From a phage, in the sequence record PZ496580.1: DNA of 64,000 nt. One strand, 5' to 3'. Shown here piece by piece: positions 7,374 through 47,791 of the stretch (positions are counted from its first letter, which is position 1; each line of letters begins with the position of its first letter). The notes under the pieces were generated by a model. The model did no database searches, was not told the origin of the DNA, and saw nothing but the letters and a program-made list of their open reading frames with translations. A program made the translations under genes and the position numbers.

Positions 7374-7402
7374 ATTATGCTATACACCCGATCTTATGTC
7401 AA
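7374..7402 (-). promoter_or_regulatory. sigma70-type early promoter cassette
   Basis: approx; TTGACA-17-CATAAT. Confidence 0.5.
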
Positions 7403-7407
7403 CACTT

Positions 7408-7686: not shown

Positions 7687-7709
7687 AATATTGTCCTCAC
7701 TTATAAAGT

Positions 7710-8211: not shown

Positions 8212-8213
8212 AA

Positions 8214-8423: not shown

Positions 8424-8688
8424 AATTGTTAACTACCTTATCAGCTTCTTTTATTGTTTTTACATCAACTGCGATAATCCGTAAAGGTTCGTCGAAGGTC
8501 CACCAATGATCGTGAATATCAGCTTGTGATTTATCACCAAAGGAATCACGAATATCATTTTTACATTTATAGCTAATATGGCCTTCATAGTCAACATAAA
8601 GGTAATTATCGAAAATCGGCGTTTTTAAGATCATACCGAAAAATCTTTCTTTGTGTGTCTTATCCAGCGTTGCAGTAATTCGCATCAT
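8410..8688 (-). CDS. paralog family member D
   Basis: ORF track; motifs NYLYVDYEG, HDHWW, IIAVDV; GAGGAA SD. Confidence 0.5.
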   Translation of the reverse strand: MMRITATLDKTHKERFFGMILKTPIFDNYLYVDYEGHISYKCKNDIRDSFGDKSQADIHDHWWTFDEPLRIIAVDVKTIKEADKVVNNYEQI

Positions 8689-8700
8689 AATATATTCCTC

Positions 8701-8880
8701 TTAGAAAGGGATGGTCATTTCTTGAGCTTGTACATTCTCATTAGGATTAAACTTCATCCAGCCGATATTGTCTACCAGCATATGCACATTTTTATCATAT
8801 CCTACGTGGGTAGTCAATACTGTATGTGCTTTACCTTCAATTATGAGTTCCATGTACTTCTGAACTTCGATAGCTTTCAT
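8701..8880 (-). CDS. hypothetical small protein (59 aa, below ORF-track cutoff)
   Basis: ATG directly after conserved leader and SD (cat tttgattctcc on plus strand); MKAIEVQKYMELIIEGKAH... Confidence 0.4.
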   Translation of the reverse strand: MKAIEVQKYMELIIEGKAHTVLTTHVGYDKNVHMLVDNIGWMKFNPNENVQAQEMTIPF

Positions 8881-8912
8881 TTTGATTCTCCGTTTGTTGT
8901 CTTGATGGGAGT

Positions 8913-8941
8913 ATCTTACTACTCCCTTTAATCATTGTCAA
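8913..8941 (-). promoter_or_regulatory. sigma70-type early promoter cassette
   Basis: approx; TTGACA-17-TAAGAT; -10 embedded in GGGAGTAGTAAGATACTCCC palindrome. Confidence 0.45.
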
Positions 8942-8944
8942 CTA

Positions 8945-9112
8945 TTATTTGTTAATTTCTGGTGCGTTGCTCGGATAGTAACCTTCTTTAACACCCAGAT
9001 ATTTTGCAACCATTCCGGTGATCTTCTGTGCTACTACGATATCGAATTTCAGGTAGTCTTCACCGTGGTTTGCTACAATGTATGCTTCGCATTCTGCTTT
9101 AGTCTGGAACAT
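8945..9112 (-). CDS. hypothetical small protein (55 aa), copy 2 of duplicated gene
   Basis: MFQTKAECEAYIVANHGEDYLKFDIVVAQK...; near-identical to 5191..5358. Confidence 0.45.
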   Translation of the reverse strand: MFQTKAECEAYIVANHGEDYLKFDIVVAQKITGMVAKYLGVKEGYYPSNAPEINK

Positions 9113-9147
9113 TTTTTGATTCTCCTATATCTCGTTGGTATGTGTGC

Positions 9148-9176
9148 ATTATAGGGGATCACCGATCCCCTGTCAA
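9148..9176 (-). promoter_or_regulatory. sigma70-type early promoter cassette
   Basis: approx; TTGACA-17-TATAAT, spacer GGGGATCGGTGATCCCC identical to cassette at 2838..2866. Confidence 0.6.
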
Positions 9177-9181
9177 CAACT

Positions 9182-9475
9182 TTATAATGCTTTATATGCG
9201 TATTTCATAAATTTGTCTGCCACTTCATTGGCATGTTCAGCTTCTACGCCTGATTCGAGAACAATAGCTAGGTCGGTTTCGTCATTCCCGCCGTACCAAT
9301 GATTTGATGTTCGATTTTTTTCAATTGGAAATTGGTCACTTTTATCTGTGCGACAAAATACATCTAAATGCTCGTCGATGTAAAAGATCCAATCTTCATA
9401 AAGAATAACGGTATTAGCCAGATTTTTATTGCCTTCAACGAAAGGTTCGGCTACAAACAAATTAGTATGTTCCAT
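9182..9475 (-). CDS. paralog family member E (divergent)
   Basis: trimmed to MEHTNLF start with GAGGAA SD; motifs IFYIDEHLDV, SNHW, AIVLESG. Confidence 0.4.
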   Translation of the reverse strand: MEHTNLFVAEPFVEGNKNLANTVILYEDWIFYIDEHLDVFCRTDKSDQFPIEKNRTSNHWYGGNDETDLAIVLESGVEAEHANEVADKFMKYAYKAL

Positions 9476-9491
9476 AACAATTTCCTCAAAA

Positions 9492-9683
9492 TTATACAAC
9501 TTCGTAAACTTCCCAATGTTCAGCGCCAGCACGCTTAACGAAAAGGTTTTCTTTGATGTTATTCATAAACGTATGAATGGATTTAATGCGGTTGGAAGGT
9601 TTCCAGTCTTCGTTAGCATTGCGGCGATACATTATAACATTACCAGATCGCTTATATTCAGCAACCATTTTAAGACCACACAT
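9492..9683 (-). CDS. hypothetical protein (63 aa)
   Basis: ORF track; GAGGAT SD. Confidence 0.4.
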   Translation of the reverse strand: MCGLKMVAEYKRSGNVIMYRRNANEDWKPSNRIKSIHTFMNNIKENLFVKRAGAEHWEVYEVV

Positions 9684-9732
9684 AATATTATCCTCAATTT
9701 GTGGGAGAGTATTACCCCTCCCGATGTTTGTT

Positions 9733-9761
9733 ATATTACATTACACAAAATGGCGTGTCAA
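9733..9761 (-). promoter_or_regulatory. sigma70-type early promoter
   Basis: approx; TTGACA-17-TAATAT, -35 lies inside 3' end of upstream ORF. Confidence 0.4.
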
Positions 9762-10061
9762 TGCTTCTTTTGCTGTTCCGCTAAGACTTTCGATCTCGCC
9801 TGGCATAACATCAACTGCCAGAACTTCTACAACATCCTCGGACCCTAACCAGTGAGTATGACCTTTGTAGAACTTGATGACCAGACTACCTTCCTCGTCC
9901 CATTTAACGCTATCGCTAGCCCACCACACATCACCGTCGATAAAGTTGATGTAAAGCACACTACGCCACATTGAATTAATTACTTTCAATACTGCGCCTT
10001 TCATCTCTTCCACGGTATGGTCTTCCATTTTGAAGACCTCACCTACCTGAACTTTTGCCAT
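9741..10061 (-). CDS. paralog family member F
   Basis: ORF track; motifs LYINFIDGD, GHTHWL, VLAVDVM; GAGAGG SD. Confidence 0.5.
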   Translation of the reverse strand: MAKVQVGEVFKMEDHTVEEMKGAVLKVINSMWRSVLYINFIDGDVWWASDSVKWDEEGSLVIKFYKGHTHWLGSEDVVEVLAVDVMPGEIESLSGTAKEALTRHFV

Positions 10062-10081
10062 TTAGTTTTACCTCTCGTTAA

Positions 10082-10261
10082 TTACATTACGATCACGCCA
10101 GCCGTTGAAAGTTGATGTTTCAACTGAGCATTTTCTGCTACCGTCAAATCAATGATTTCTTGTGACGCTGCAATCATATAGCCATTGGTGATATTGTTTT
10201 GCATCAGTTCAATGGTTTCTTCGTTGTAGCGGATTTTAGCGATGATTTCGTTGAAGTTCAT
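10082..10261 (-). CDS. hypothetical small protein (59 aa)
   Basis: track ORF 10082..10327 trimmed to MNFNEII start; upstream part is the promoter/leader itself. Confidence 0.45.
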   Translation of the reverse strand: MNFNEIIAKIRYNEETIELMQNNITNGYMIAASQEIIDLTVAENAQLKHQLSTAGVIVM

Positions 10262-10295
10262 AATTGATTCTCCTAGTTCGTTTCGGTATGTGTGT

Positions 10296-10324
10296 AGTAT
10301 AGGGGATCGGTGATCCCCTGTCAA
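10296..10324 (-). promoter_or_regulatory. sigma70-type early promoter cassette
   Basis: approx; TTGACA-17-TATACT; GGGGATCACCGATCCCC spacer. Confidence 0.5.
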
Positions 10325-18161: not shown

Positions 18162-18190
18162 ATATTACTACCCCCGTTTCATGCTGTCAA
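18162..18190 (-). promoter_or_regulatory. sigma70-type early promoter cassette
   Basis: approx; TTGACA-17-TAATAT with GGGGGTAGTAATATACCCCC palindrome over -10. Confidence 0.45.
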
Positions 18191-18409
18191 CTACTTTTTA
18201 ATGACAAGTTCGAATTTTGCTACCTTACGTCCTCGTTTATTGAAAGCAACCCACGGACGGTTTTCAATGTAGAACAATTCTTCACCAATAATGAATACTG
18301 GCTGATTGTAAAGGCGACCCATCAGGTCACGCTGGCGAATGGTAGTAGATTCGTATACTTCGCCTACTACAAAGTGTTTGCTGATAGAGTCGGTGCAGAT
18401 AAATTTCAT
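18191..18409 (-). CDS. hypothetical protein, MK..C small-protein family
   Basis: 72 aa MKFICTDSI...; related ORFs at 20787..20954 and 45516..45722. Confidence 0.45.
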   Translation of the reverse strand: MKFICTDSISKHFVVGEVYESTTIRQRDLMGRLYNQPVFIIGEELFYIENRPWVAFNKRGRKVAKFELVIKK

Positions 18410-18442
18410 TTTGATTCTCCTTTGTTTCGTTTCGATGGGAGT

Positions 18443-18471
18443 ATCTTACTACCCCCGTTATTCAGTGTCAA
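18443..18471 (-). promoter_or_regulatory. sigma70-type early promoter cassette
   Basis: approx; TTGACA-17-TAAGAT. Confidence 0.45.
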
Positions 18472-18478
18472 CTACTTT

Positions 18479-18697
18479 TTACTTGTTGTATTCATTCCAC
18501 CATTGGGTTAACTTATCAATTATTTTTGTGTTTCTATCCAACTTATCCCACCGTTTTCGAGGGTTTATCAACCGGAATAGGTAAGGTGTACTTGTTAAGT
18601 GAACTCGGTCAATATAGTGATTGATGTACTGCTTTTCGATTCTAAGTTTCATCTTTTTACGATGAAAATATGCAATGACTTGTTCTTCTGTTTCCAT
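18479..18697 (-). CDS. hypothetical protein (72 aa)
   Basis: ORF track; GGAGG SD. Confidence 0.4.
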   Translation of the reverse strand: METEEQVIAYFHRKKMKLRIEKQYINHYIDRVHLTSTPYLFRLINPRKRWDKLDRNTKIIDKLTQWWNEYNK

Positions 18698-18721
18698 ATG
18701 TTCCTCCGTTTCGATGTGCGT

Positions 18722-18750
18722 ATTATGCTATGGCAAGATCCGATTGTCAA
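18722..18750 (-). promoter_or_regulatory. sigma70-type early promoter cassette
   Basis: approx; TTGACA-17-CATAAT. Confidence 0.45.
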
Positions 18751-18797
18751 CACCCAATAACAAAAAAGTCGCCACTATGGGCGACTTTGAACAAACA

Positions 18798-19274
18798 TTA
18801 ATCATGACCGTGATTTGCAATATCCGCTCGCGTCTTATCTTTGTGATTTCCTACGTCAAAGACACGATAACCATTTTCACGCAAAACTTTAATCACTTCT
18901 GGGTTATCCTCAAAGACTCCCACCACTTCATCTTTATCAAAGGATTTAATTACCTCTAATTTGATGTGATAGTCTTTACGAGAATCGGTACGGCCTCTCA
19001 TAAAGATTTTATCAAAACACACCCCGTTAGAAATTAACCAATCAATTGTTTCCATGTAAGCATGTGAACTTCGTCCGGTGAGGATGTAAATCAAATGCCC
19101 GTTGTCGGAAAGAGCATTAATAACACGAATTACATCGTAAATGGGGGAATCTCCCCCACATGCCTTGTTATATTCGATCCATGACTCGACTTTATCAAGA
19201 TTTTCGGTTGGCATCTTTGCTAGTCGATGTGTTGGATCTGTGATCGTAAAATCTAAATCGACAAAATATATCAT
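18798..19274 (-). CDS. HAD-superfamily phosphatase
   Basis: 158 aa; N-terminal DLDFT (DxDxT) motif and GNHKD-type downstream motifs. Confidence 0.5.
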   Translation of the reverse strand: MIYFVDLDFTITDPTHRLAKMPTENLDKVESWIEYNKACGGDSPIYDVIRVINALSDNGHLIYILTGRSSHAYMETIDWLISNGVCFDKIFMRGRTDSRKDYHIKLEVIKSFDKDEVVGVFEDNPEVIKVLRENGYRVFDVGNHKDKTRADIANHGHD

Positions 19275-20431
19275 AGATATTTCCCGAATCGGTTGTAGTC
19301 ATCGTCTGTTAAATCGGTATTAACCTGAGATACCAGATACATGATCTCTACTTCTTGCGCCGCGTTTTGAACTTCGTCAGAGTTTAACCACTTACGCATC
19401 CACGGTAAAGGATGACGACGAACACTAAACGGGCTTTTCAGTCCGGCAGCACGCATACGGGAATCTGCCAAATATTCTACATAGGTTTTCAGAATTTCCG
19501 GTGATAGGTTAGGAATTGCCCCCATTGCGAATAGGTGGTCTACCCATTCTTTTTCTTGCTCGACAACATCCAGAAAGATTTTCGTTGCTTCGTCTTCAAG
19601 TTCTTCCGCAATCTGTTTCCACTCATCACCATCAGCCCCCGTTTGCCATTGACGAATAATGTATTGTGTGCCTTTTAAGTGAAGTTGTTCATCACGCGCA
19701 ATAAATTTCATGATCTTCGCGTTACCTTCCAGTAAACCACGTTCGGCAAAGCTGAAAGTACATGCAAAGGACACATAAAAACGGATTGCTTCCAGTGCAT
19801 TAACGCAGTGTGCACACAGATAAATCGAAGCCATCAGATCTCGTTTTGTATCTTCAAAAAATCTTCTTGCATCATCTAATGCTGTCTGGTCGTCTCGTTC
19901 TTCCCAATAGCGGAGATCTTCTTTTGCATTCTCATACTTACGAATCCAATAGAGAACATCATCATAATATTGCCCGATAGATTCCGCTCGCTTCATGATA
20001 GCAGGGTTATCGATGATCTGGTCAAACTCACTAGCCGGATCAATGAAACAGTTACGCATGATGTGTGTATAGCTTCGGCTATGAATCGTTTCGCTGAATG
20101 TCCATGTTTGCAACCATGTATCAAGAGTTGGATCAGATACAATTGGACCAAATGCTGCGGACGGTGCGCGACCTTGAATAGAATCAAGTAATGTCTGATA
20201 CTTCAAGTTTTCTGTAAAGAAACGTTTTTCAACATCGCCCATATTCAGATATTGAATGCGGTCGGTTGCAAGTGAAATCTCTTCTGGACGCCAGAAAAAT
20301 GACAATTGCTTTTCGATCAGTTCTTCAAATACTTGATGACGCTGAATATCATAGCGAGCGATACCCAACCCACTACCCAGAAACATCGGTTCGTTCATAA
20401 TATCAACATGTTCGCGGTTAAATACGCTCAT
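19271..20431 (-). CDS. nrdB: ribonucleotide reductase beta subunit
   Basis: 386 aa (T4 NrdB ~388); ferritin-like fold motifs; ORF uninterrupted (no intron). Confidence 0.85.
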   Translation of the reverse strand: MSVFNREHVDIMNEPMFLGSGLGIARYDIQRHQVFEELIEKQLSFFWRPEEISLATDRIQYLNMGDVEKRFFTENLKYQTLLDSIQGRAPSAAFGPIVSDPTLDTWLQTWTFSETIHSRSYTHIMRNCFIDPASEFDQIIDNPAIMKRAESIGQYYDDVLYWIRKYENAKEDLRYWEERDDQTALDDARRFFEDTKRDLMASIYLCAHCVNALEAIRFYVSFACTFSFAERGLLEGNAKIMKFIARDEQLHLKGTQYIIRQWQTGADGDEWKQIAEELEDEATKIFLDVVEQEKEWVDHLFAMGAIPNLSPEILKTYVEYLADSRMRAAGLKSPFSVRRHPLPWMRKWLNSDEVQNAAQEVEIMYLVSQVNTDLTDDDYNRFGKYL

Positions 20432-20446
20432 TAATTCACCTCACTA

Positions 20447-20614
20447 TCACTTTTTAACACAAAAGAACTTAGTATTTCTGTTTATTTCGTTATCCTGTTG
20501 CAATTCCTGCACGGCTTCAAAACAACTTTGATGTGATGAAAACTCCACGCTGGTAACAGTTCCTTTATTATATGATCCTACGCTAACGGAAAGCAATAAC
20601 CATATTGTAGCCAT
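20447..20614 (-). CDS. hypothetical small hydrophobic-N-terminus protein (55 aa)
   Basis: MATIWLLLSVSVGSYNKG...; TAATG coupling to upstream paralog; below ORF-track cutoff. Confidence 0.35.
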   Translation of the reverse strand: MATIWLLLSVSVGSYNKGTVTSVEFSSHQSCFEAVQELQQDNEINRNTKFFCVKK

Positions 20615-20787
20615 TAGTTCACCTTCTGCTTTTCAATGCAATACAGATTCATAAAGCGTTTATTGTCTTCGCGGATAATCTCGCGAGCTTTAACGCAATC
20701 CTGCTTTGTTGCAAATTCAATGCTTGACATATTTCCGTAATTATACATTGAATTGCTTATTGCAATCAATAACCATACAGTAGCCAT
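20614..20787 (-). CDS. hypothetical small hydrophobic-N-terminus protein (57 aa)
   Basis: MATVWLLIAISNSMYNYG...; TAATG coupling with gene above; paralog of 20447..20614. Confidence 0.35.
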   Translation of the reverse strand: MATVWLLIAISNSMYNYGNMSSIEFATKQDCVKAREIIREDNKRFMNLYCIEKQKVN

Positions 20788-20954
20788 TATCCGACAACCT
20801 CAAAACATTTATCATCAGGAAGAATAGCCCATTCTACGCCGTATTCATCCTCAACGTAGTAGCAAGTCCCATCATGTCGAGCATCATATACATCACCGAC
20901 AACAAAGCTATCAGCTAGTTCAAAATCTACAGCAACACATTTTAATTTGGTCAT
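20787..20954 (-). CDS. hypothetical protein, MK..C small-protein family
   Basis: track ORF trimmed to MTKLKCVAVDF (promoter sits in the discarded part). Confidence 0.4.
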   Translation of the reverse strand: MTKLKCVAVDFELADSFVVGDVYDARHDGTCYYVEDEYGVEWAILPDDKCFEVVG

Positions 20955-20985
20955 AATAAAATCCTCACTTGTTTTTGATGGTTGA

Positions 20986-21014
20986 ATTATAGCGGGGATT
21001 TCTCCCCGCGTCAA
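20986..21014 (-). promoter_or_regulatory. sigma70-type early promoter with hairpin in spacer
   Basis: approx; TTGACG-17-TATAAT, spacer GCGGGGAGAAATCCCCGC doubles as terminator-like hairpin after nrdA. Confidence 0.5.
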
Positions 21015-40291: not shown

Positions 40292-40948
40292 ATGCAAGTT
40301 TCTGAAAAAGAGAAAGACTTTGCTATCTCAAATGTCCTGCGCGCTATTTTCACAACTAAAAGCACGGAGTTGCTCGTACTTCGTGTTTTTGCTGCCGTCG
40401 TGTTGTCCATATTAGCATTTGTCGTTTATAGTAAAAACGAGTTATTTGCGCTTTATAAAGAGACTCGTTATGAGACTTATGCTCACGTTCTCCAGGTAGA
40501 GAAAGACCGCAATTTTGATAATGCAGCACAGGAGCAGTTACAGATAGTTCATGTGTCGGCTGATGCCGATTTTTCTGCTGTTTTTAGTTTTCGTCCGAAA
40601 AACCTAAACTATTTTGTTGATTTGGTGGCATATGAAGGAAAGCTACCGCATACGATCGATGAAAAGAATTTAGGCGGATTCCCTATCAATAAAACGAGTG
40701 AAGAATATCGTAGGCATCTTTTAGGTAAATCCTATTTTACTGATAAAGATTTCCAGTATATTCCATCGAGGGAGAAAAAATTAGAGAATATCGATATAGG
40801 ATTCATGTATTCTTGTCCTATATTCAATCTCGATAATGTCTATTCTGGTAGTATCGCCATTGCATGGAAGAATAAACCGGATATTGACATTGAGAATTTA
40901 GATACTCTTTGCAATCAATCTGCCAGAATCCTCGGAAGGATTAGATAA
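40292..40948 (+). CDS. t: holin
   Basis: 218 aa; collinear with T4 holin T (LEQLQIVH.S.EADFSAVYSFRPKNLNYFVD..AYEGKLP...ARILGR). Confidence 0.9.
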   Translation: MQVSEKEKDFAISNVLRAIFTTKSTELLVLRVFAAVVLSILAFVVYSKNELFALYKETRYETYAHVLQVEKDRNFDNAAQEQLQIVHVSADADFSAVFSFRPKNLNYFVDLVAYEGKLPHTIDEKNLGGFPINKTSEEYRRHLLGKSYFTDKDFQYIPSREKKLENIDIGFMYSCPIFNLDNVYSGSIAIAWKNKPDIDIENLDTLCNQSARILGRIR

Positions 40949-40951
40949 CTT

Positions 40952-40988
40952 AAAGGGGAAGCCTTTCGGCCTCCCCTTCTTTTTTATT
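40952..40988. terminator. bidirectional intrinsic terminator between t and convergent minus-strand genes
   Basis: approx; GGGGAAGCC-TTTC-GGCCTCCCC followed by TTCTTTTTTATT. Confidence 0.6.
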
Positions 40989-41232
40989 GGTGCATAGAAG
41001 CCCCTGAATCACATTTTGACGCTGTATGATGAAAACAGGTAGCGTACCAGTCATCGGCTTGTTTGTCTTCGTCAGAAAACGCGTAATTTCGTTGTATACC
41101 GTTTTCTACTTTGACCAGTGCAATAGCTGTTTCTGGAAGATCAATCAATCGAACAAAATCACCATCTTCCCACTCTACACGAGCAATATCATAGCCCATC
41201 TCAAAATAAACAATCGCTTGTTCTAATTTCAT
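40984..41232 (-). CDS. hypothetical protein (82 aa)
   Basis: ORF track. Confidence 0.4.
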   Translation of the reverse strand: MKLEQAIVYFEMGYDIARVEWEDGDFVRLIDLPETAIALVKVENGIQRNYAFSDEDKQADDWYATCFHHTASKCDSGASMHQ

Positions 41233-41576
41233 TCTGGAAACTTCCCGTAAATGTTCTCTGCCAGCTTACGTGCATCGCTAATAATATCTTTCATGTGATG
41301 GTCGTATTGCTTTGCCATAATAAGAATACAATCAATGAAGAATGAATAACGTCTAGAATTTACTAAAAAGTTTTTACCTAGTGAATCAAACGGATCTAGA
41401 TCATCAAGTTCGATAGATTCTCTAACTTTAGACAATTCTTTCATTACAAGGTTTACATCGTTTATAATATCTTTTGATTTATATGCGCCTTTCTTTAACA
41501 ATATGGCGGTCAATTCTGACGCAGTTTCTTGAAATTCTTTCTGATAAGCTGAGTTTACATCATCGATATTAAACAT
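41229..41576 (-). CDS. hypothetical protein, tandem paralog 1 (MFN..D ... ENIYG)
   Basis: 115 aa; shares N- and C-terminal motifs with 41586..41918. Confidence 0.45.
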   Translation of the reverse strand: MFNIDDVNSAYQKEFQETASELTAILLKKGAYKSKDIINDVNLVMKELSKVRESIELDDLDPFDSLGKNFLVNSRRYSFFIDCILIMAKQYDHHMKDIISDARKLAENIYGKFPE

Positions 41577-41585
41577 AATCGCCTC

Positions 41586-41918
41586 TCAAATATTGCCGTA
41601 AATGTTTTCAGTCATGGTTCTTGCTTCTTCCAGCATTTTGGTCATGCTCATGGTGTAGTTGTTATCTCGTACAGACTTAATAACGACAAGCAAGGAATCT
41701 AGGAAAACTTTATATACTCTCCATTTTACGCTATTGTTGAATAGTTTTATATCTTCTACTTTATCGATCAGATAACCTAAAACAGATAGCGCCTCGTTCA
41801 CTTCTTCCGTTACTTTACTGCCACTAAACCAGATGGGGTAAAGCTGGATTGACAGCGACCGTGCTGCCTCTTTCAGTTCGGTCGCCTTCCATGATTCATA
41901 TTGATCAAAGTTAAACAT
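41586..41918 (-). CDS. hypothetical protein, tandem paralog 2
   Basis: 110 aa; MFNFDQYESW...TENIYGNI. Confidence 0.45.
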   Translation of the reverse strand: MFNFDQYESWKATELKEAARSLSIQLYPIWFSGSKVTEEVNEALSVLGYLIDKVEDIKLFNNSVKWRVYKVFLDSLLVVIKSVRDNNYTMSMTKMLEEARTMTENIYGNI

Positions 41919-41930
41919 TATAGAATACCC

Positions 41931-42263
41931 TTACAGATGAAAACCTGTTACGATCACCGCGTCGATCATACCGCTAGGGATAAACGGTTCACCCTCTTTT
42001 ATCTCAACTTTGAATTGATGCCATTTCGCTAATACTTCTTCCGGTACACCCAGCGATTCGGCATCTGCTTTAGTTTCATCCATAATCCAACTAGGCTGCA
42101 TGAGAGCATAGTTTACATAGTCCATTTCTGGGGTCATGTCATCAATGTTAATATATTTGCAGTTGACGCGTTTCAGAATTTCAAATTCTTTATCATCAAC
42201 CTGTACCATGTACAATTCGGTAGTTTCTGGAATCAGTTCCCATACAATCAGTACATTTTTCAT
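41931..42263 (-). CDS. hypothetical protein (110 aa)
   Basis: ORF track. Confidence 0.4.
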   Translation of the reverse strand: MKNVLIVWELIPETTELYMVQVDDKEFEILKRVNCKYINIDDMTPEMDYVNYALMQPSWIMDETKADAESLGVPEEVLAKWHQFKVEIKEGEPFIPSGMIDAVIVTGFHL

Positions 42264-42271
42264 AGGTCACC

Positions 42272-42640
42272 TCACTTAACAAAGATTTTCTTTAATGCTT
42301 TCAGGATCGTTGCTTCCGGCGCTTCTTCCGGTGGAGGAAGCAATTCTACCACTTCCTCTTCCAACTCGATATAGTCTACCAGATATTCTACATAGAATGC
42401 AAGTGCTTCCATGAAATTAAATGCTACATCCGATTCACCACACGCTCCTACATGCATTGTATAAACATCACTGCGATCAAGTTTGTGGATACTGCCTAGA
42501 TAGTTCCGGTTATACCAGACTTCCCACACTTTCAGCTTTCCGGTTTTGGTTGCTGTTTTATAATCGGTTTCGTAGTGGTGCAATTGACGTTGCAGATCAT
42601 TGATAATAACACATTTTTCGTAATTGTTTTGAATTTCCAT
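42272..42640 (-). CDS. hypothetical protein (122 aa)
   Basis: ORF track. Confidence 0.4.
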   Translation of the reverse strand: MEIQNNYEKCVIINDLQRQLHHYETDYKTATKTGKLKVWEVWYNRNYLGSIHKLDRSDVYTMHVGACGESDVAFNFMEALAFYVEYLVDYIELEEEVVELLPPPEEAPEATILKALKKIFVK

Positions 42641-42650
42641 GATGTAATCC

Positions 42651-42842
42651 TCACTTATCGTTAAGAAGTTCTAAAACTTTCTGTCGTACTTTGTCAATAT
42701 TAGTTGATTCAAAAACTGTACGGTATCCCCAGCTTTGACCGTATGACCGCGAGCAATCCCCATATCCCCATTGTTCAACCTGATAGTATTCAAGGAATGG
42801 ATGTTGCCGAACTATTATACCATCGCGATTAAAAATTACCAT
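42651..42842 (-). CDS. hypothetical protein (63 aa)
   Basis: ORF track. Confidence 0.35.
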   Translation of the reverse strand: MVIFNRDGIIVRQHPFLEYYQVEQWGYGDCSRSYGQSWGYRTVFESTNIDKVRQKVLELLNDK

Positions 42843-42864
42843 AATATAATCCTCACGTCAAAAC

Positions 42865-43164
42865 TTATTTTCGGTTGTGGTCACGATATGTTTTAAAATA
42901 TCCCTCGTACCACGGTAAAACATCTGGATTTTTACCACTATACAGACTTTTAACCATCATGTCAATAAGACCGTCCGGTGTTTGATAATTACCAGCTTTT
43001 ATAAGCTCTCTGATTAAAATCTCTCTGTATATGTCTTTAGGATCTTCGTAATCAACTTGTATTGTGGTTGTTGTCTCGCTTAATTTGGTTTCTGGGGTAT
43101 CTTGCATCGCCTTCCACCAATCTTTTGTAATCTTCATGCTGTTGAATTTCATAATTATCTGCAC
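42865..43164 (-). CDS. hypothetical protein (99 aa)
   Basis: ORF track; overlaps upstream gene by 10 nt. Confidence 0.4.
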   Translation of the reverse strand: MQIIMKFNSMKITKDWWKAMQDTPETKLSETTTTIQVDYEDPKDIYREILIRELIKAGNYQTPDGLIDMMVKSLYSGKNPDVLPWYEGYFKTYRDHNRK

Positions 43165-43925
43165 CCGTACTGGTCAACATAGATTTTAGAGTATCCTTGT
43201 TCGCGGACTTCTAAGCGAATGATATCGCTATCCTGTTCACGCCACACATAATACTTTTTATTTTCTTTCCAGCCGCTAAAAACGATCATTCCGTTGTCAT
43301 CAACTACTCGTTTTGTGTTTGCCTTATGCACATCATTATTGTCGATGTATGTAAAATGGATAATCTGACCATCTTTTACTTTCAGAGTCAATTCACCTGG
43401 ATTGTACTCTTTATAAAATGGCTGTGCTTTCGGCTTAGTGTTTGCTCCGTCGATATTTTTCCATTTAAAGTGAGATTCACATTGCAAGGTAAACTCGCTG
43501 GTTTGTGGTTTCTTTTCTTTCTTCGGTTGCTCTACCACTTTTTCTTCCTGTTTCGGTTGTTGTTCTTCGTCAACCTTAACGGAAGTCTCTGAATCGCTTT
43601 CTGACGCGGTTTCTTCTTTAGGTAATACATTCATCAAGTTTTGAATTTGAGCGTTATATACAGCCTCCAGTGGCTGAATCTGCCCGATATTGATCATAGT
43701 ATCACGAACAGTTTTATTCCAGTTGCGTTGCTCTTGTTTCAGAGACGGATCAATCTTAACAGCCTTAACATACACCTCATGAAGTTTCGAATCCAGTGCG
43801 GAGATTGACTCATTAGCACAAATAAACTTCTCTGATTTGGTAGTAGCTTTAGCGCAATCAAAGGACGCAGCATTGGCACCGAAAGCAGTAGCGGAAAGAA
43901 CGATAGCAGCGATAATGTTTTTCAT
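43155..43925 (-). CDS. secreted protein with LprI/DUF1311-like N-terminal domain
   Basis: 256 aa; signal peptide MKNIIAAIVLSATAFGANA; FDCAKATT.EK.IC....ALD..L...Y......EQRNWNK.VRD resembles lysozyme-inhibitor LprI family; Lys/Glu-rich linker. Confidence 0.45.
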   Translation of the reverse strand: MKNIIAAIVLSATAFGANAASFDCAKATTKSEKFICANESISALDSKLHEVYVKAVKIDPSLKQEQRNWNKTVRDTMINIGQIQPLEAVYNAQIQNLMNVLPKEETASESDSETSVKVDEEQQPKQEEKVVEQPKKEKKPQTSEFTLQCESHFKWKNIDGANTKPKAQPFYKEYNPGELTLKVKDGQIIHFTYIDNNDVHKANTKRVVDDNGMIVFSGWKENKKYYVWREQDSDIIRLEVREQGYSKIYVDQYGCR

Positions 43926-43959
43926 AATATATTCCTCAATGTTTTGTCTTGATGGGAGT

Positions 43960-43988
43960 ATCTTACTACTCCCTTAATCCGGTGTCAA
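43960..43988 (-). promoter_or_regulatory. sigma70-type early promoter cassette
   Basis: approx; TTGACA-17-TAAGAT. Confidence 0.45.
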
Positions 43989-43995
43989 CTACTTT

Positions 43996-44151
43996 TTAAA
44001 TTTCTTCTACAGTAAAGTCTTCAATGTTGTTGTGCTCTGCGAACGTTGCCAGACCAGCATCCCACGCATCATCCTCAGAGAAGAATACACCGTAACGTTC
44101 ATATCCTTTAGCGCCTTCAAATTTAACCATTAATTTGTGAGTATGTTTCAT
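43996..44151 (-). CDS. hypothetical small protein (51 aa)
   Basis: track ORF trimmed to MKHTHKL (upstream part is promoter/leader). Confidence 0.4.
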   Translation of the reverse strand: MKHTHKLMVKFEGAKGYERYGVFFSEDDAWDAGLATFAEHNNIEDFTVEEI

Positions 44152-44182
44152 TTTGATTCTCCTTCGTTGTCTTGATGAGTTC

Positions 44183-44211
44183 ATTATAGGGGATCTGCGA
44201 TCCCCTGTCAA
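44183..44211 (-). promoter_or_regulatory. sigma70-type early promoter cassette
   Basis: approx; TTGACA-17-TATAAT, GGGGATCGCAGATCCCC spacer. Confidence 0.55.
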
Positions 44212-44220
44212 TAACTATTT

Positions 44221-44433
44221 TTAATTTTTACCCGCTCGTGCATTAATACGCATTTTCTGCATAGCCATGATCTGGCTTACTGCTTCTTCTTTACGTTCTT
44301 GCGTGATAACGTGACCAGATTCCGCAAACTCTCCCGCAACTTCTTCTACGATCTCGCGAACTTGAGAACGTCCAAAGATGCGGTTTCCTTCGTAGCTCAT
44401 AAACTCTGTTACTACTTGCTCGATAGATTTCAT
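44221..44433 (-). CDS. hypothetical protein (70 aa)
   Basis: ORF track; leader and SD. Confidence 0.45.
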   Translation of the reverse strand: MKSIEQVVTEFMSYEGNRIFGRSQVREIVEEVAGEFAESGHVITQERKEEAVSQIMAMQKMRINARAGKN

Positions 44434-44462
44434 GTGATTCTCCTTTTGTTTGGTATGGGAGT

Positions 44463-44491
44463 ATGTTACTACTCCCTTATCTTTACGTCAA
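44463..44491 (-). promoter_or_regulatory. sigma70-type early promoter cassette
   Basis: approx; TTGACG-17-TAACAT. Confidence 0.4.
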
Positions 44492-44498
44492 CTAGTTT

Positions 44499-44741
44499 TT
44501 AGAAATTTTTCGCTTCTTCTTCGGTCATCATAACCGCGCATTCGTGCATAACTTTGAAAACCGGATCAATCATGTCGAATGCTTCGCGAGACAATTTACG
44601 AGAAGCGATTTTGATTGCTTCATCGTCTTCGACTACAGGAACAAAAACAGTTTTCAGTTCATCGAGAATGGCAGCTTCTTTTTCATTCAGGAAGATACCA
44701 GCGTCATACAGTGCAACTTCGATAACATTAACTTTAACCAT
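44499..44741 (-). CDS. hypothetical acidic protein (80 aa)
   Basis: ORF track. Confidence 0.45.
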   Translation of the reverse strand: MVKVNVIEVALYDAGIFLNEKEAAILDELKTVFVPVVEDDEAIKIASRKLSREAFDMIDPVFKVMHECAVMMTEEEAKNF

Positions 44742-44774
44742 TTTAATTCCTCCAGTTCGTTTCGGTATGGGAGT

Positions 44775-44803
44775 ATAATACTACCGATGACCTTTGGCGT
44801 CAA
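44775..44803 (-). promoter_or_regulatory. sigma70-type early promoter cassette
   Basis: approx; TTGACG-17-TATTAT. Confidence 0.4.
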
Positions 44804-45005
44804 CTGCTTTTTTATTATTTTCGTGAAAATTTTTCGTCGCCTCATGTGCTTTTCGCTGGGCTTCTTGTTGTGCTTGCTGGCGTGCTGCCTCTTGCGATGC
44901 CATAACAGACGCATTTGCAGCAGTTACAGCCGCGACCATCGCTGCGGTATTGGCATTTACAGTACATGCGCTCGCCAACAAAGCAATCGCAATCATTTTC
45001 TTCAT
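44781..45005 (-). CDS. small secreted protein (signal peptide, Ala/Gln-rich)
   Basis: 74 aa; MKKMIAIALLASACTVNA signal-like N-terminus. Confidence 0.4.
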   Translation of the reverse strand: MKKMIAIALLASACTVNANTAAMVAAVTAANASVMASQEAARQQAQQEAQRKAHEATKNFHENNKKAVDAKGHR

Positions 45006-45172
45006 AGTTTCCCCTTTATGTTATCTTCGACCTTCATCCATTCCGCGTATTCTTGCGCGGCTACTTTCGGATTTAGTCCGTCTTCGTACATTGCTTCAAG
45101 TAATTCTTCGTCGGTGGGCTTATACCCTAGATAAGCCTCCACCTGATTTTTCCAAATTTTATACCAGTTCAT
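45002..45172 (-). CDS. hypothetical protein
   Basis: track ORF trimmed to MNWYKIW. Confidence 0.35.
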   Translation of the reverse strand: MNWYKIWKNQVEAYLGYKPTDEELLEAMYEDGLNPKVAAQEYAEWMKVEDNIKGKL

Positions 45173-45176
45173 ATTA

Positions 45177-45449
45177 TCACCAGTCAAGAGCGCGTGTCTC
45201 TGCGTCTTCCCATGCTTGATCCATAACAGCCTTAAAAACATATTCTAAGGTATCATCTTTCGAGAATCCGAAGACCTTAGACGGAATATCTTCAATTGCT
45301 ACTCCAGCAACTTCCGCATTACGAGCCTGACAATAATGCAACTCTAAGTTATCGAGATAGCGACCGCCTAATTTCTCCATATCATCCCAACATTTCCAGT
45401 AACCTACTTTATCGGCAATTGCTAACACTTTGCTGTTTTCGTTGCTCAT
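45177..45449 (-). CDS. hypothetical protein
   Basis: track ORF trimmed to MSNENSKVL below the promoter. Confidence 0.4.
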   Translation of the reverse strand: MSNENSKVLAIADKVGYWKCWDDMEKLGGRYLDNLELHYCQARNAEVAGVAIEDIPSKVFGFSKDDTLEYVFKAVMDQAWEDAETRALDW

Positions 45450-45480
45450 CTTTGATTCTCCTTTCGTTTGGTGTGGGAGT

Positions 45481-45510
45481 ATGTTACTACTCCCATTATT
45501 CAGTGTCAAT
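45481..45510 (-). promoter_or_regulatory. sigma70-type early promoter cassette
   Basis: approx; TTGACA-18-TAACAT. Confidence 0.35.
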
Positions 45511-45515
45511 AGATT

Positions 45516-45722
45516 TTATTCGATTATTTCAAATTTTGCTACCGGATCACCGTTTCGTTTGGTTGCGGTAAGTTGTTGTTTGTCAAAGTAAAACCAAATA
45601 TAGTCACCATGAACTACATCAAATGTGTTTCCGTTATTGTTCGTGAATACATCAACATCATAATCACACCCGACACTAAAGCTATAATTGATGTGATCGG
45701 TTTCAATGCAACGTACTTTCAT
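45516..45722 (-). CDS. hypothetical protein, MK..C small-protein family
   Basis: trimmed to MKVRCIETDHI. Confidence 0.4.
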   Translation of the reverse strand: MKVRCIETDHINYSFSVGCDYDVDVFTNNNGNTFDVVHGDYIWFYFDKQQLTATKRNGDPVAKFEIIE

Positions 45723-45753
45723 TTTTGAATCTCCTTTTTGTTTCACTGTGTGT

Positions 45754-45782
45754 ATTATGCGGTGCTGGATTATGGAAGTCAA
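45754..45782 (-). promoter_or_regulatory. sigma70-type early promoter cassette
   Basis: approx; TTGACT-17-CATAAT. Confidence 0.4.
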
Positions 45783-45792
45783 CAACTTTTTA

Positions 45793-45823
45793 AAATAAAA
45801 AAGCCGACCACAAGGATCGGCTT
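45793..45823 (-). terminator. intrinsic terminator
   Basis: approx; AAGCCGA-loop-TCGGCTT followed by TTTTTTATTTT on minus strand. Confidence 0.5.
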
Positions 45824-45832
45824 AATAATCAG

Positions 45833-46228
45833 TTACTTACTAAATTTCTTTTTGGCTTCGTCTACTGCATGAGATGCCAGTACCGCCGCCGCATGTGCAT
45901 TTTTATCTGTGTTGCAGAGAACACCCAGATAAACATCACGCCAAAGTTTAATCATCTCGTAGATCATATCAATATCATTTTCTTGTTTGTTGGCGATGCT
46001 ATTCGTCGTTATCTGGTAAGGTAACGGCTTGATCTGTACTGGTTCCGCCATCGGGCTAATAGGTTTCGGATCGGTCATAATAGGTGCTGTTGTCGGTGAT
46101 GTTTTCCATACGTCATTATTCCACGGTTTAACGGTTGTACCGTATATTTTATAAGGATTTTTGTCTGGATCAACCATCCATGTATGATGAATACCTAAAC
46201 CATTTGAAGTAATGCGTCGCTCAGTCAT
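45833..46228 (-). CDS. hypothetical protein (131 aa)
   Basis: ORF track. Confidence 0.45.
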   Translation of the reverse strand: MTERRITSNGLGIHHTWMVDPDKNPYKIYGTTVKPWNNDVWKTSPTTAPIMTDPKPISPMAEPVQIKPLPYQITTNSIANKQENDIDMIYEMIKLWRDVYLGVLCNTDKNAHAAAVLASHAVDEAKKKFSK

Positions 46229-46433
46229 GTTTTACCCCCTCTGATAATTCTTTCATCCAATAATCTATCGTTGCTCTGTGTTCTGGTGTGTTTGTTATCC
46301 CTGCGAACTTGTTCAGAGATTCAATATTGATCCGGTTGGCTTCTTCCATAGTCTCAACGACCATTGGTACAATCTTTTCATTGTTGTACACGAAAGCCAC
46401 ATAACCACCTACGGGATATTCTTTCATAATCAA
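46221..46433 (-). CDS. hypothetical protein (70 aa)
   Basis: ORF track; coupled overlaps with both neighbours. Confidence 0.4.
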   Translation of the reverse strand: MIMKEYPVGGYVAFVYNNEKIVPMVVETMEEANRINIESLNKFAGITNTPEHRATIDYWMKELSEGVKHD

Positions 46434-47791
46434 CCCTTCTTAAGTTCTTTAAGATCCTTCTTATATTCCTTCATTGCGGTCGTCTTTGTCCAATACTCAT
46501 ATTCACTATGATGTTTATCGGCATCTTTGACCAGTCGATCATACTCTTCTTGAGTAACGCTATACAATGGCATAGAAACGAGCTTATCGGCGTATGAACG
46601 CAGTTTTTCATGTCCATTGATGGATTGCATTACCTCGGCCTTTTTCTTTCCCTGTAGCTCGATTTCGCCCTTAATTACGCGATCGATAAATTCGGCTTTA
46701 GCCATTGCATAATTGTATGCTTCCAGCGTTTCCGCTTGCATCAATTCAATGCGTTTATCGACATACCATAAGCGGATTTCGACGAATCGACGAATCAGGT
46801 CGCTAGCTTTCTCGAATACTTCAACTAAACCACGTTCATTAACCACTACGATATTCTGGGCTACTAACTGCGTTAGTTTAAAATCCTTCATGATTTGCTC
46901 ATGTCGAGCGGATTCATCTTCGCTTTTGAAATAATCGCGTTTCAGTGTTACTTCAAATCTAAATCCATCCTTAGAGCAACGGTCATTATATGAGACAATC
47001 AGATCTTTTTCTTCCAGTGCATCCAGTACCGCTACATATTCTTCACGGTCGAACTTATAAGGAACTTCTGATATTGTCAGTTTAGTCTTGCCGTTTAGTT
47101 CATATGTACCCTCAAGAATGACACCATCGCGGTCATCACGCGGGATAACTTTACCGGTGAATTTTGGGAATTGAACACTAGGTTCTTTATCCAGTTTTCC
47201 GGCAAGTGCTAGCTCTGTGCATTCAATGAGGCTTTCCAGTGAATGCGGTAAAATGTCAGTTTTATACCCTGTAGCAATACCACTAATACCATTAGCCAAT
47301 ACCATTGGCACAACTGGCAAGTAGAACGCTGGCGGGATGTGTTCCAGATCTTCGTGCTTAGGTGCGCAATTCATATCTTTATAGATTTTAAAGAAGTTTT
47401 CATGCACACGAGCAAAGATATAACGTGCCGCGCCTGCTTTCTGGACTAAACGCGAACCGAAGTTACCTTGACCGTCAAGCAGTGGAGTATTATTGCTCCA
47501 TGTATTCGCCATGAGTGATCCGGCTTCTACGGCATTAGTTTCGCCGTGGTGATACCCCAATTCAGCAACACCAGATCCAATATCTGCCATCTTACGGAAT
47601 TTCTTACGGTCGCCTTTACTCTTTTGCAAAGCACATTCCATAACAAAGCGTTGCACTGGTTTAAGCCCATCCACTAATTGAGGAATCCCGCGTTCCTCGG
47701 CAGAATAGATCGCATATTCCTTAGCTTCATTATGTACAATGCTTTCAAGGCTGCGGTAAGTAACTGATTTATTCATCTTCACCTCATACAC
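46430..47791 (-). CDS. 52: DNA topoisomerase II medium subunit
   Basis: 453 aa; GyrA-like DGLKPVQR motif and catalytic Tyr region. Confidence 0.85.
   Translation of the reverse strand: MYEVKMNKSVTYRSLESIVHNEAKEYAIYSAEERGIPQLVDGLKPVQRFVMECALQKSKGDRKKFRKMADIGSGVAELGYHHGETNAVEAGSLMANTWSNNTPLLDGQGNFGSRLVQKAGAARYIFARVHENFFKIYKDMNCAPKHEDLEHIPPAFYLPVVPMVLANGISGIATGYKTDILPHSLESLIECTELALAGKLDKEPSVQFPKFTGKVIPRDDRDGVILEGTYELNGKTKLTISEVPYKFDREEYVAVLDALEEKDLIVSYNDRCSKDGFRFEVTLKRDYFKSEDESARHEQIMKDFKLTQLVAQNIVVVNERGLVEVFEKASDLIRRFVEIRLWYVDKRIELMQAETLEAYNYAMAKAEFIDRVIKGEIELQGKKKAEVMQSINGHEKLRSYADKLVSMPLYSVTQEEYDRLVKDADKHHSEYEYWTKTTAMKEYKKDLKELKKG

Follow-up and report, generated by a model that had tools for sequence, protein, structure and literature searches.

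The slot between holin gene t and topoisomerase gene 52 is where phage T4 carries asiA, arn and motA. In the phage record PZ496580.1 this slot holds a tight series of promoter cassettes and very small ORFs, and the question is whether they form a host-takeover set that has replaced the T4 genes or belong to a system already described in relatives. The window analysed here is the whole stretch of 64,000 nucleotides from this record. Fifty-nine phage records match it at 93–95% nucleotide identity, all of them E. coli or Shigella phages, and the eight relatives that were examined or carry a genus name (FL04, UPWr_E1, kaaroe, GEC-3S, RB49, phi1 and two 'Krischvirus' assemblies) are all Krischvirus. 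We are confident that the window is DNA of a T4-type coliphage like RB49, in the genus Krischvirus, and that the six units described below are promoter-early stem-loops (PeSLs). Holin t is found at 40292-40948 on the plus strand (Pfam Phage_holin_T, 5e-61) and gene 52, the right border of the interval, at 46430-47791 on the minus strand. The interval is syntenic with T4 t-asiA-arn-motA-52, in agreement with the earlier note on this DNA, which had placed the cassettes downstream of holin t in the region where T4 carries asiA, arn and motA. All 17 ORFs of the t-52 interval were run against Pfam and PHROGs, and the only named Pfam matches were LprI in the ORF called A below and a Tad2-like anti-defence domain in the ORF adjoining t (40984-41232).

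The six cassettes (c1–c6) are real, all lie on the minus strand, and the positions given for them in the earlier note, which are the final base of each −10 hexamer, were matched exactly. Specifically, c1 (43926..44005) has the promoter TTGACA-17-TAAGAT at 43988-43960 (−35 at 43983-43988, −10 at 43960-43965), and ORF A begins downstream of it with a Shine-Dalgarno site and an ATG. The promoter of c2 (44152..44220), TTGACA-17-TATAAT at 44211-44183 (−35 at 44206-44211, −10 at 44183-44188), agrees with the consensus at 12 of 12 positions. Cassette c3 (44434..44498) carries TTGACG-17-TAACAT at 44491-44463 (−35 at 44486-44491, −10 at 44463-44468), and the degenerate c4 (44742..44810) carries TTGACG-17-TATTAT at 44803-44775 (−35 at 44798-44803, −10 at 44775-44780). 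The remaining two are c5 (45450..45515), with TTGACA-17-TAACAT at 45509-45481 (−35 at 45504-45509, −10 at 45481-45486), and c6 (45723..45832), with TTGACT-17-CATAAT at 45782-45754 (−35 at 45777-45782, −10 at 45754-45759). Taken together, the promoters agree with the consensus at 9–12 of 12 positions with a spacer of 17, and the 20 nt upstream of each −35 are 75–90% A+T. Alignment of the six units, about 65–110 bp long, shows that they have in common an AT-rich tract resembling an UP element, the two promoter hexamers, a conserved short leader with a GGAG-type Shine-Dalgarno site, and the ATG. The cassettes are intergenic and each leads to the Shine-Dalgarno site and start codon of an ORF without known function, while the stops of ORFs B, C, D, E and H fall in or beside the AT-rich tract upstream of a −35.

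Chance does not account for this pattern. The strict pattern TTGAC-N18-[TC]A...T occurs 45 times in the window (40 on the minus strand) as compared to 5.9 ± 2.3 in shuffles, and the 1.8 kb of the cluster holds six where about 0.2 are expected. It is important to note that a relaxed promoter scan of the 5.6-kb region shows no overall enrichment (15 against 16.5 expected); only the high-scoring, same-strand, intergenic promoter set stands out.

In four of the six cassettes (c1, c2, c3 and c5) there is a G-run/C-run hairpin inside the promoter, with folding energies of about −12 to −14.6 kcal/mol and z-scores from −3.0 to −3.8. The stems of c1 (43954-43973, GGGAGTA-GTAAGA-TACTCCC; −13 kcal/mol, z −3.0), c3 (44457-44476, GGGAGTA-GTAACA-TACTCCC; −11.9, z −3.3) and c5 (45475-45494; −12.6, z −3.6) are 7–8 bp long and lie across the −10, and that of c2 (44189-44205, GGGGATC-GCA-GATCCCC; 8 bp, −14.6, z −3.8) fills the spacer. 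The c3 hairpin also scores as a terminator on the opposite strand. Cassette c4, which overlaps the final codons and the stop of ORF E, keeps only the right hairpin arm TACTCCC; the left arm is lost and the fold is no better than that of shuffles (z −1.4). In c6 a canonical 9-bp terminator hairpin (45801-45823, AAGCCGATCCTTGTGGTCGGCTT followed by a T-run) precedes the AT-rich tract and the −35. The hairpin motif GGGAGTA-N3-TACTACTCCC gave 10 matches where 0.03 are expected. Other cassettes of the window have a hairpin at about the same place that is built from different stems, GGGGGTA/TACCCCC at 18190 and GGGTGTAT/ATACACCC at 7402, and the cassette at 18471 has a G.T intermediate stem. Between subclasses of cassette the hairpins differ in register, so that their alignment columns do not correspond. 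An Rfam search of 40900-46500 found no credible family.

These inverted repeats might act as DNA, i.e. as operators or cruciforms at which a bound phage or host factor shuts off the early promoters in a phage without AsiA, rather than as RNA attenuators. The palindromes lie precisely within the spacer or over the −10, where a repressor would be ideally placed, and on the sense strand the promoter-embedded hairpins are without the U-run of intrinsic terminators, the canonical form being seen only in the hairpin upstream of the c6 promoter. Moreover, a search of RB49 yielded neither a motA ortholog nor middle promoters, and orthologs of AsiA were named only for other T4-like phages: RB69, 44RR, Aeh1 and KVP40 (Nolan 2006). 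However, the stem sequences vary while the pairing is kept, including the G.T intermediate, and therefore a folded strand is favoured over one sequence-specific operator. In addition, two of the six cassettes lack a palindrome within the promoter, as do several others of the window, though in other respects all are alike, and a PeSL stem-loop alone ended transcription in a reporter about as well as rrnB T1 (Arbiol 2010, PMC2839356). We regard purely DNA-level operators as highly improbable and treat the hairpins below as putative RNA attenuators.

Six promoters serve eight ORFs (A–H, all on the minus strand). ORF A (43155..43925, 256 aa, phrog_14799) is driven by c1 and combines a signal-peptide-like N-terminus with an LprI-like N-domain (Pfam LprI PF07007, E=2e-5, 25.3 bits at a cutoff of 22); its C-terminal half, 43156-43520, is diverged from most relatives. 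ORF B (43996..44151, phrog_19699, pN/pS 0.03) encodes an acidic protein of 51 aa (pI 4.7) and begins with the ATG at 44151 after GGAG. ORF C (44221..44433, 70 aa, phrog_14966, pN/pS 0.13) is present in all seven relatives compared. The accessory ORF D (44499..44741, pN/pS 0.04) encodes an acidic, predicted all-helical protein of 80 aa, and tblastn found it in 32 phage records only, at 95–99% identity; all are E. coli or Shigella phages, and those examined are Krischvirus. Cassette c5 drives a three-gene operon, G-F-E. Its first gene, ORF G (45177..45449, 90 aa, acidic and helical, phrog_7287), is under the strongest constraint among the small ORFs (pN/pS 0.02). ORF F (45002..45172, 56 aa, acidic, phrog_8655, pN/pS 0.34) has a stop that overlaps the start of E (ATGA). 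ORF E (44781..45005, 74 aa, basic, pN/pS 0.04), the last gene, was found full length in 12 phage records, and three more have only an 18-aa tail overlapping the cassette. The accessory ORF H (45516..45722, 68 aa, acidic, phrog_9122) occurs only in FL04 and UPWr_E1 among the seven relatives. PHROGs either labels these ORFs 'unknown function' or has no family for them, and D and E have neither a PHROG nor a Pfam match. Judged by pN/pS values of 0.02–0.34 against the seven relatives, all eight ORFs are genuine genes that evolve under purifying selection.

The description of the ORFs in the earlier note has to be adjusted in part. It had stated that each cassette precedes an ORF of 50–110 aa. Because transcription runs leftward, the gene driven from 43960 is ORF A, which at 256 aa is not small, and the figure of 110 aa is a TTG-extended reading of ORF G; the remaining ORFs are indeed small, 51–90 aa from ATG starts preceded by a Shine-Dalgarno site. 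The 'small secreted Ala/Gln-rich protein' is ORF E, and its composition (28% Ala, 8% Gln) and signal-peptide-like N-terminus (MKK, a hydrophobic stretch and VNA|N) were found as described, so that the protein is predicted to be exported.

Are any of the small ORFs counterparts of the T4 genes? For AsiA (PF09010) there was no Pfam match at E ≤ 1 in the 10 ORFs of 43155-46427, nor at E ≤ 0.1 in the 7 other ORFs of the interval; T4 AsiA gave a best E of 0.37 by tblastn against the whole window and at most 2.9 bits by phmmer. By tblastn AsiA is found in 1169 phage records, with none of 60 from Krischvirus among the rows sampled. The MotA N-terminal activation and C-terminal double-wing domains had no Pfam match in the interval ORFs. 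The best tblastn match to MotA (E 0.23) lies elsewhere in the window, and its sole phmmer match (10 bits, in a 17-sequence database) is to the Ala/Gln-rich low-complexity part of ORF E. With nine T4 proteins (AsiA, MotA, the anti-McrBC DNA mimic Arn, asiA.1, arn.1-4 and motA.1), blastp against the 17 interval ORFs reached a best E of 0.16, and tblastn against the window gave nothing at E < 0.05. Thus the statement that no ORF is recognisably asiA, arn or motA is borne out by Pfam, tblastn, phmmer and blastp, all at E > 0.1 against the relevant search space; profile searches and comparison with the three T4 genes gave no significant similarity, and homology to them did not appear. The RB49 record describes p259 as resembling the T4 '12.8 kD protein in the AsiA-MotA region', a resemblance that BLAST with the window ortholog at 42272-42640 did not reproduce.

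Structure-based and more distant searches led no further. PDB sequence searches with A, D, G, I and a G-family profile gave nothing below E 0.15. The AlphaFold2 models of D and G reach a pLDDT of only about 66, and Foldseek against PDB with the low-confidence G model gave nothing below E 2.9, with AsiA absent from the matches. In large databases ORF G has only close relatives and about a dozen small unannotated phage proteins; the neighbours of one distant relative, VRR_NUC and Dam, give no functional hint. G also has two long matches, to a MucBP repeat protein and to a coiled-coil protein, which appear to be spurious.

The small ORFs could be thought of as a functional replacement of AsiA, Arn and MotA, namely host-takeover effectors (anti-sigma, activator, anti-restriction) that have either diverged beyond recognition or are unrelated to the T4 proteins. 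They occupy the same syntenic slot from t to gene 52, early-type promoters drive them, five of the seven encode small acidic proteins (pI 4.4–4.7), a type common among the early effectors of T4, G resembles AsiA in having 90 aa and a predicted helical fold, and the Tad2-like ORF at 40984-41232 is a neighbour in the interval. We nevertheless consider such a replacement very unlikely: neither sequence nor profile comparison relates the ORFs to a T4 gene of this interval, the Foldseek result with the G model (a low-confidence model) does not bring up AsiA, B, D, E and H are dispensable in that close relatives are without them, and PHROGs offers only 'unknown function'. The 'replaced cargo set' of the earlier note is right as a description, and 'host takeover' is only an analogy for the small ORFs. 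Any one of them could encode a host-directed or anti-defence effector, none being singled out here. It is very unlikely that one constrained acidic ORFan such as G is an unrelated analog targeting sigma-70 or RNA polymerase, or that the palindromes, as cruciforms or hairpins recognised by a phage or host factor, are DNA-level early-promoter switches that also nucleate recombination. If true, the palindrome switches would supply the early shut-off that T4 gets from AsiA, and would do so in a lineage for which neither a motA ortholog nor middle promoters have turned up.

The gene content of the interval varies among the seven Krischvirus relatives compared, and the variation is bounded by the cassettes. 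ORF B together with c2 (44003-44213) is missing in GEC-3S and replaced in kaaroe, the module E-c4-D (44512-45015) is missing in RB49, phi1 and UPWr_E1, and ORF H (45482-45719) is missing in RB49, phi1, GEC-3S and kaaroe. In each case the breakpoints (44003/44213, 44512/45015 and 45482/45719) lie inside cassettes. Junction alignment shows that the cassette preceding G in RB49 and GEC-3S has the sequence of c6 at its 5' side and that of c5 at its 3' side. The one preceding A in GEC-3S consists of a c2 flank and a c1 core, and the crossover between these two falls in the AT-rich tract; the E-c4-D insert is placed within the AT-rich tract of c3, and UPWr_E1 carries a c4/c3 hybrid in which a c4-type −35 and spacer are fused to a c3-type leader. 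Chimeric junction cassettes of this kind account for whether a genome has ORF B, ORFs D and E, or ORF H. As several breakpoints are common to several relatives, they may reflect few ancestral events rather than frequent exchange.

A plainer explanation is that the cassettes are strong early promoters which resemble each other because selection preserves their recognition by sigma-70, that they have no special role in recombination, and that the indels just fall between genes. Dense gene packing means that any intergenic indel falls near a promoter, only seven relatives were compared in detail, and the breakpoints in common are possibly single old events. On the other hand, each junction cassette cleanly combines two neighbouring cassettes, and the crossover falls within sequence common to both, either the AT-rich tract or the leader that follows the −10. 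The three sub-loci occur in at least four different arrangements among the seven relatives, and conservation is not confined to the −35 and −10 but takes in the leader and the tract upstream. In addition, mini-circles from PeSL-PeSL exchange have been reported experimentally in RB49 and phi1 (Arbiol 2010, PMC2839356). Promoter selection by itself is very unlikely to be the right account, and we favour cassettes that also serve as sites of exchange.

By analogy, we infer that the six cassettes behave like characterised PeSLs, including in promoter activity and timing. Unmodified host RNA polymerase would fire them right after infection, a timing taken from other PeSLs, and one to three small ORFs would be expressed per unit apart from c1, which would drive A: B from c2, C from c3, D from c4, G-F-E from c5 and H from c6. 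The hairpin would lie upstream of the inferred start site of its own unit and would therefore form only in read-through RNA from the preceding unit, where it might attenuate or end the upstream transcript. Since the units have 30–100 bp in common, homologous recombination between them could insert, delete or swap the flanked ORFs. Such recombination would make the t-52 interval hyperplastic, with gene content varying among close relatives.

The six repeated promoter units are real but ordinary, because they are the described PeSLs of Krischvirus in a known variable region of small genes. The arrangement of cassettes and small genes between t and 52 is the standard architecture of hyperplastic regions (HPRs) in RB49-like phages and no local peculiarity; ORFan263.1 of phi1, named in the PeSL paper as a unique HPR-located ORF, maps to this same interval. 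Published accounts of PeSLs, of their clustering in the hyperplastic regions of RB49-like phages and of the failed search for motA and middle promoters in RB49 date back to 2002–2010. What the locus provides is a worked example with at least three independent cassette-bounded modules (B, E-c4-D and H) and clean hybrid junctions across Krischvirus isolates, which extends the support for the modular-shuffling model to more genomes than the two phages first compared.

Integron attC sites and the module boundaries of mosaic phages are similar in that short structured intergenic repeats flank single ORFs, promoter-less or self-promoted, and occur at the edges of the cassettes that are gained or lost. 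They differ in that the cassettes here are promoters themselves and that no dedicated recombinase is known or was found for them, exchange being credited to general homologous recombination. The T4 t-52 interval has the same flanks, leftward early transcription of many small genes and sigma-70 promoters with AT-rich upstream elements. In contrast, none of the genes of the T4 interval has a detectable homolog in this phage, and T4 adds a MotA/AsiA middle mode, whereas the search in RB49 cited above found neither the activator gene nor its promoters. The consensus of T4/PST-type PeSLs is TTTACW-N17-TAYWAT, with different stems (Comeau 2014, PMC4122927).

The closest likeness is to the PeSLs of RB49 and phi1, which have a near-perfect TTGACA-N17-TATAAT promoter with an AT-rich upstream region, in which the preceding gene often ends, and a stem of the form Gn-loop-Cn located between the boxes, across the −10 or upstream, and which sit in HPRs before ORFans at about 50 per genome (Arbiol 2010, Genome Biol Evol 2:140, PMC2839356; Comeau 2014, PMC4122927). 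In RB49 and phi1, PeSL206/205, 193/192 and 211/210 were reported to act in vivo as strong promoters and as terminators or attenuators, and to form mini-circles (Arbiol 2010, PMC2839356). The cassettes described here share with them the genus, the anatomy, the hyperplastic location and the gain and loss of ORFs through hybrid cassettes, and the density is also alike, with 22–23 full cassettes per 64 kb as compared to about 50 per 164-kb genome. The public GEC-3S record annotates promoters at the equivalent sites. Apart from c4, which has no left hairpin arm here, the six cassettes match the published PeSLs in every feature that can be checked from sequence. Nothing essential is different, and this isolate, like FL04, has B, D, E and H all present and is therefore fuller than RB49 or phi1.

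A consensus scan for sigma-70-type promoters finds six high-scoring promoters on the minus strand at 43960-45782, and their −10 hexamers end exactly at the six coordinates where the earlier note had placed promoter cassettes. Numbered by rising coordinate, these are c1 (43988-43960, TTGACA-17-TAAGAT), c2 (44211-44183, TTGACA-17-TATAAT), c3 (44491-44463, TTGACG-17-TAACAT), c4 (44803-44775, TTGACG-17-TATTAT), c5 (45509-45481, TTGACA-17-TAACAT) and c6 (45782-45754, TTGACT-17-CATAAT). Gene-strand alignment reveals a common order: an A/T-rich tract, both hexamers, a leader of ~25-35 nt, a GGAG-type ribosome-binding site and ATG. The 64-kb window holds 45 matches to the strict pattern TTGAC-18 nt-[TC]A...T (40 on the minus strand) as compared to 5.9 +/- 2.3 in block shuffles, and by inspection 22-23 of these matches are complete cassettes. 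Complete cassettes cluster at 453-10324, 18190-21014 and 43988-45782, with singles at 52679 and 59331, a window-wide grouping that explains why the present set had been called a second cluster. The ~17 cassettes outside it lie on the same (minus) strand and include types with a spacer hairpin (GGGGATC...GATCCCC), with a hairpin across −10 and with no stem. When the promoter scan is relaxed, the surrounding 5.6 kb shows no overall enrichment (15 found, 16.5 expected). The non-random part is the high-scoring, same-strand, intergenic promoter set.

Taking the ATG preceded by a Shine-Dalgarno (SD) sequence as start, the six cassettes serve eight minus-strand genes, ORFs A-H. c1 drives A (43155-43925, 256 aa), c2 drives B (43996-44151, 51 aa), c3 drives C (44221-44433, 70 aa), c4 drives D (44499-44741, 80 aa) and c6 drives H (45516-45722, 68 aa). 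c5 drives G (45177-45449, 90 aa), F (45002-45172, 56 aa) and E (44781-45005, 74 aa), which form one operon with F and E overlapping at ATGA. The proposal that every cassette precedes an ORF of 50-110 aa is corrected on two points: it fails for c1 with its 256-aa gene, and the figure of 110 aa corresponds to a TTG-extended G. Against seven relatives, pN/pS of the ORFs is 0.02-0.34, and purifying selection on all of them indicates that they are real genes. B, D, F, G and H are small and acidic (pI 4.4-4.7). ORF E is indeed Ala/Gln-rich (28% Ala, 8% Gln), and with its N-terminus of the form MKK-hydrophobic-VNA|N, secretion is plausible. Its last 18 codons (44781-44834, minus strand) cross the AT-rich tract, −35 and spacer of c4. 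In phages 011D4, phiS and PHB13 the tblastn match to E is limited to this 18-aa tail, so different upstream ORFs may share a cassette-encoded C-terminal tail.

In c1, c3 and c5 the inverted repeat GGGAGTA-6 nt-TACTCCC spans the −10 hexamer, and in c2 the spacer is filled by GGGGATC-GCA-GATCCCC. The folding energy of these four cassettes is between −12 and −14.6 kcal/mol (z from −3.0 to −3.8 versus dinucleotide shuffles), and the hairpin motif has 10 matches where 0.03 are expected. c4 keeps the right arm alone (fold z −1.4). c6 is without a promoter-embedded stem and has a canonical terminator upstream at 45801-45823, a 9-bp stem with a T-run after it. Hairpins of other stem sequence occupy much the same position in further cassettes of the window, namely GGGGGTA/TACCCCC in the one at 18190, GGGTGTAT/ATACACCC at 7402 and, at 18471, GGGGGTA/TACTCCC as a G.T intermediate. 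Variable stem sequence at a similar position points to the folded strand rather than to one conserved binding sequence. A DNA-level role of the hairpins, as operator or cruciform, is disfavoured by this variation and by the cassettes that have no stem at all. As for the folded strand, no stem extends past the inferred transcription start of the promoter it belongs to, so that it would form only in read-through RNA arriving from upstream. No U-run follows the embedded hairpins on the sense strand, which sets them apart from canonical terminators. The c3 hairpin (44457-44476) has a T-rich run after it when read on the plus strand, where it scores as an intrinsic terminator; the AT-rich tract together with this hairpin could stop antisense transcription from the opposite direction.

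The cassettes sit between holin t (40292-40948, plus strand; Pfam Phage_holin_T, 5e-61) and gene 52, the topoisomerase II medium subunit (46430-47791, minus strand), in a part of the window where genes run on the minus strand. This is the slot proposed for them, since the T4 counterpart holds asiA, asiA.1, arn, arn.1-4, motA and motA.1. Among the 17 ORFs of the t-52 interval none matches Pfam AsiA or MotA, and none of the nine T4 interval proteins finds a counterpart at E < 0.1 among the interval ORFs or in the six-frame window. The statement that these ORFs are not recognisably AsiA, Arn or MotA is therefore upheld, and the cargo is "replaced" in that it differs from that of T4. Absence of AsiA, Arn and MotA is not a local trait. 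A motA ortholog and middle promoters were found in RB49 by neither Nolan et al. 2006 nor Desplats et al. 2002 (per Nolan et al. 2006), and AsiA orthologs are listed for other phages only (Nolan et al. 2006). A tblastn search with AsiA gives 1169 phage records, with no Krischvirus in a spread sample of 60 rows.

Elsewhere in the interval, a short convergent gap (40949-40983) separates holin t from the first leftward ORF; a bidirectional terminator is annotated at the equivalent place in the GEC-3S record, and Rfam gives chance-level matches only. Directly beyond it, in convergent orientation to holin t, lies an 82-aa ORF (40984-41232, minus strand; phrog_1048, unknown function) that matches Pfam PF11195, a Tad2-like (Thoeris anti-defense 2-like) domain, over profile positions 1-71 of 73 (E 3.4e-6; 27.9 bits, cutoff 25). 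It is a candidate counter-defence gene. Two adjoining minus-strand ORFs, 41229-41576 and 41586-41918, both match phrog_9457 and hence are tandem paralogs. The stretch 41353-41586 has a counterpart in none of the seven relatives, which carry two other small ORFs there.

Searches for function among A-H gave little. The sole Pfam match is an LprI-like N-domain in A (2e-5), a lysozyme-inhibitor-like domain accompanied by a signal-peptide-like N-terminus. The C-terminal half of A (43156-43520) can be aligned across by blastn in UPWr_E1 only and not in the other six relatives, so this gene itself is mosaic. A, B, C, F, G, H and the neighbouring ORFs I and J fall in PHROGs families of unknown function; D and E have no PHROGs or Pfam family match. 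D occurs in 32 and E in 12 phage records; identity is 95-100%, and the phages are all of E. coli or Shigella. PDB sequence searches and a profile search gave no functional assignment, nor did two AlphaFold2 models (pLDDT about 66) and a Foldseek search with the G model. An exhaustive HMMER search with G recovers around a dozen short phage proteins that lack annotation, and its family is small and scattered among phages, with no annotated member. One relative (46% identical) is encoded at 811-1077 (locus L009) of the phage-like metagenomic contig SRR33913774_45302, with genes for a VRR_NUC nuclease and a Dam methylase on either side.

Over 43000-46500, identity to 59 phage records is 93-95%. 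All come from phages that infect E. coli or Shigella, FL04, UPWr_E1, GEC-3S, kaaroe and RB49 among them; the records examined belong to genus Krischvirus, RB49-like T4-type coliphages. Comparison of the window with the seven relatives shows three modules that are present or absent. GEC-3S lacks B with c2 (44003-44213), and kaaroe has other sequence in its place. E-c4-D (44512-45015) does not occur in RB49, phi1 or UPWr_E1, and four relatives (RB49, phi1, GEC-3S and kaaroe) are without H (45482-45719). Like the window, FL04 carries the full set. RB49 and GEC-3S have a single cassette upstream of G, c6-like through −10 with a c5-like leader. The GEC-3S cassette upstream of A consists of the c1 core and the upstream flank of c2, which meet at a crossover inside the AT-rich tract. 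The E-c4-D insert lies inside the c3 AT-rich tract, and UPWr_E1 combines a c4-type −35 and spacer with a c3-type leader.

Hybrid junction cassettes of this kind are what the published model for promoter-early stem-loops (PeSLs) of RB49 and phi1 predicts; in that model, PeSL-PeSL recombination was proposed to shuffle the flanked ORFs with mini-circles as intermediates (PMC2839356). Most likely, sigma-70 host RNA polymerase would fire c1-c6 immediately after infection, the stems would limit read-through between units and cassette similarity would drive modular exchange. The interpretation in the earlier note is partly supported: the cargo is unlike that of T4, its role in "host takeover" is putative, and the architecture is already known for Krischvirus. 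PeSLs number about 50 per genome, mostly in hyperplastic regions (HPRs; PMC2839356; PMC4122927), and those tested were strong promoters with terminator activity comparable to rrnB T1 (PMC2839356). phi1 ORFan263.1, named as an HPR-located unique ORF (PMC2839356), lies in the same t-52 interval, and the GEC-3S record already has promoters annotated at the equivalent sites. PeSLs and c1-c6 share a near-perfect TTGACA-N17-TATAAT with an AT-rich region upstream; PeSLs and the window cassettes also share a Gn-loop-Cn stem between the boxes, across a box or upstream, and the SD and start of an ORFan downstream. At the sequence level, the cassettes match the already known PeSLs of RB49 and phi1 in every testable feature.
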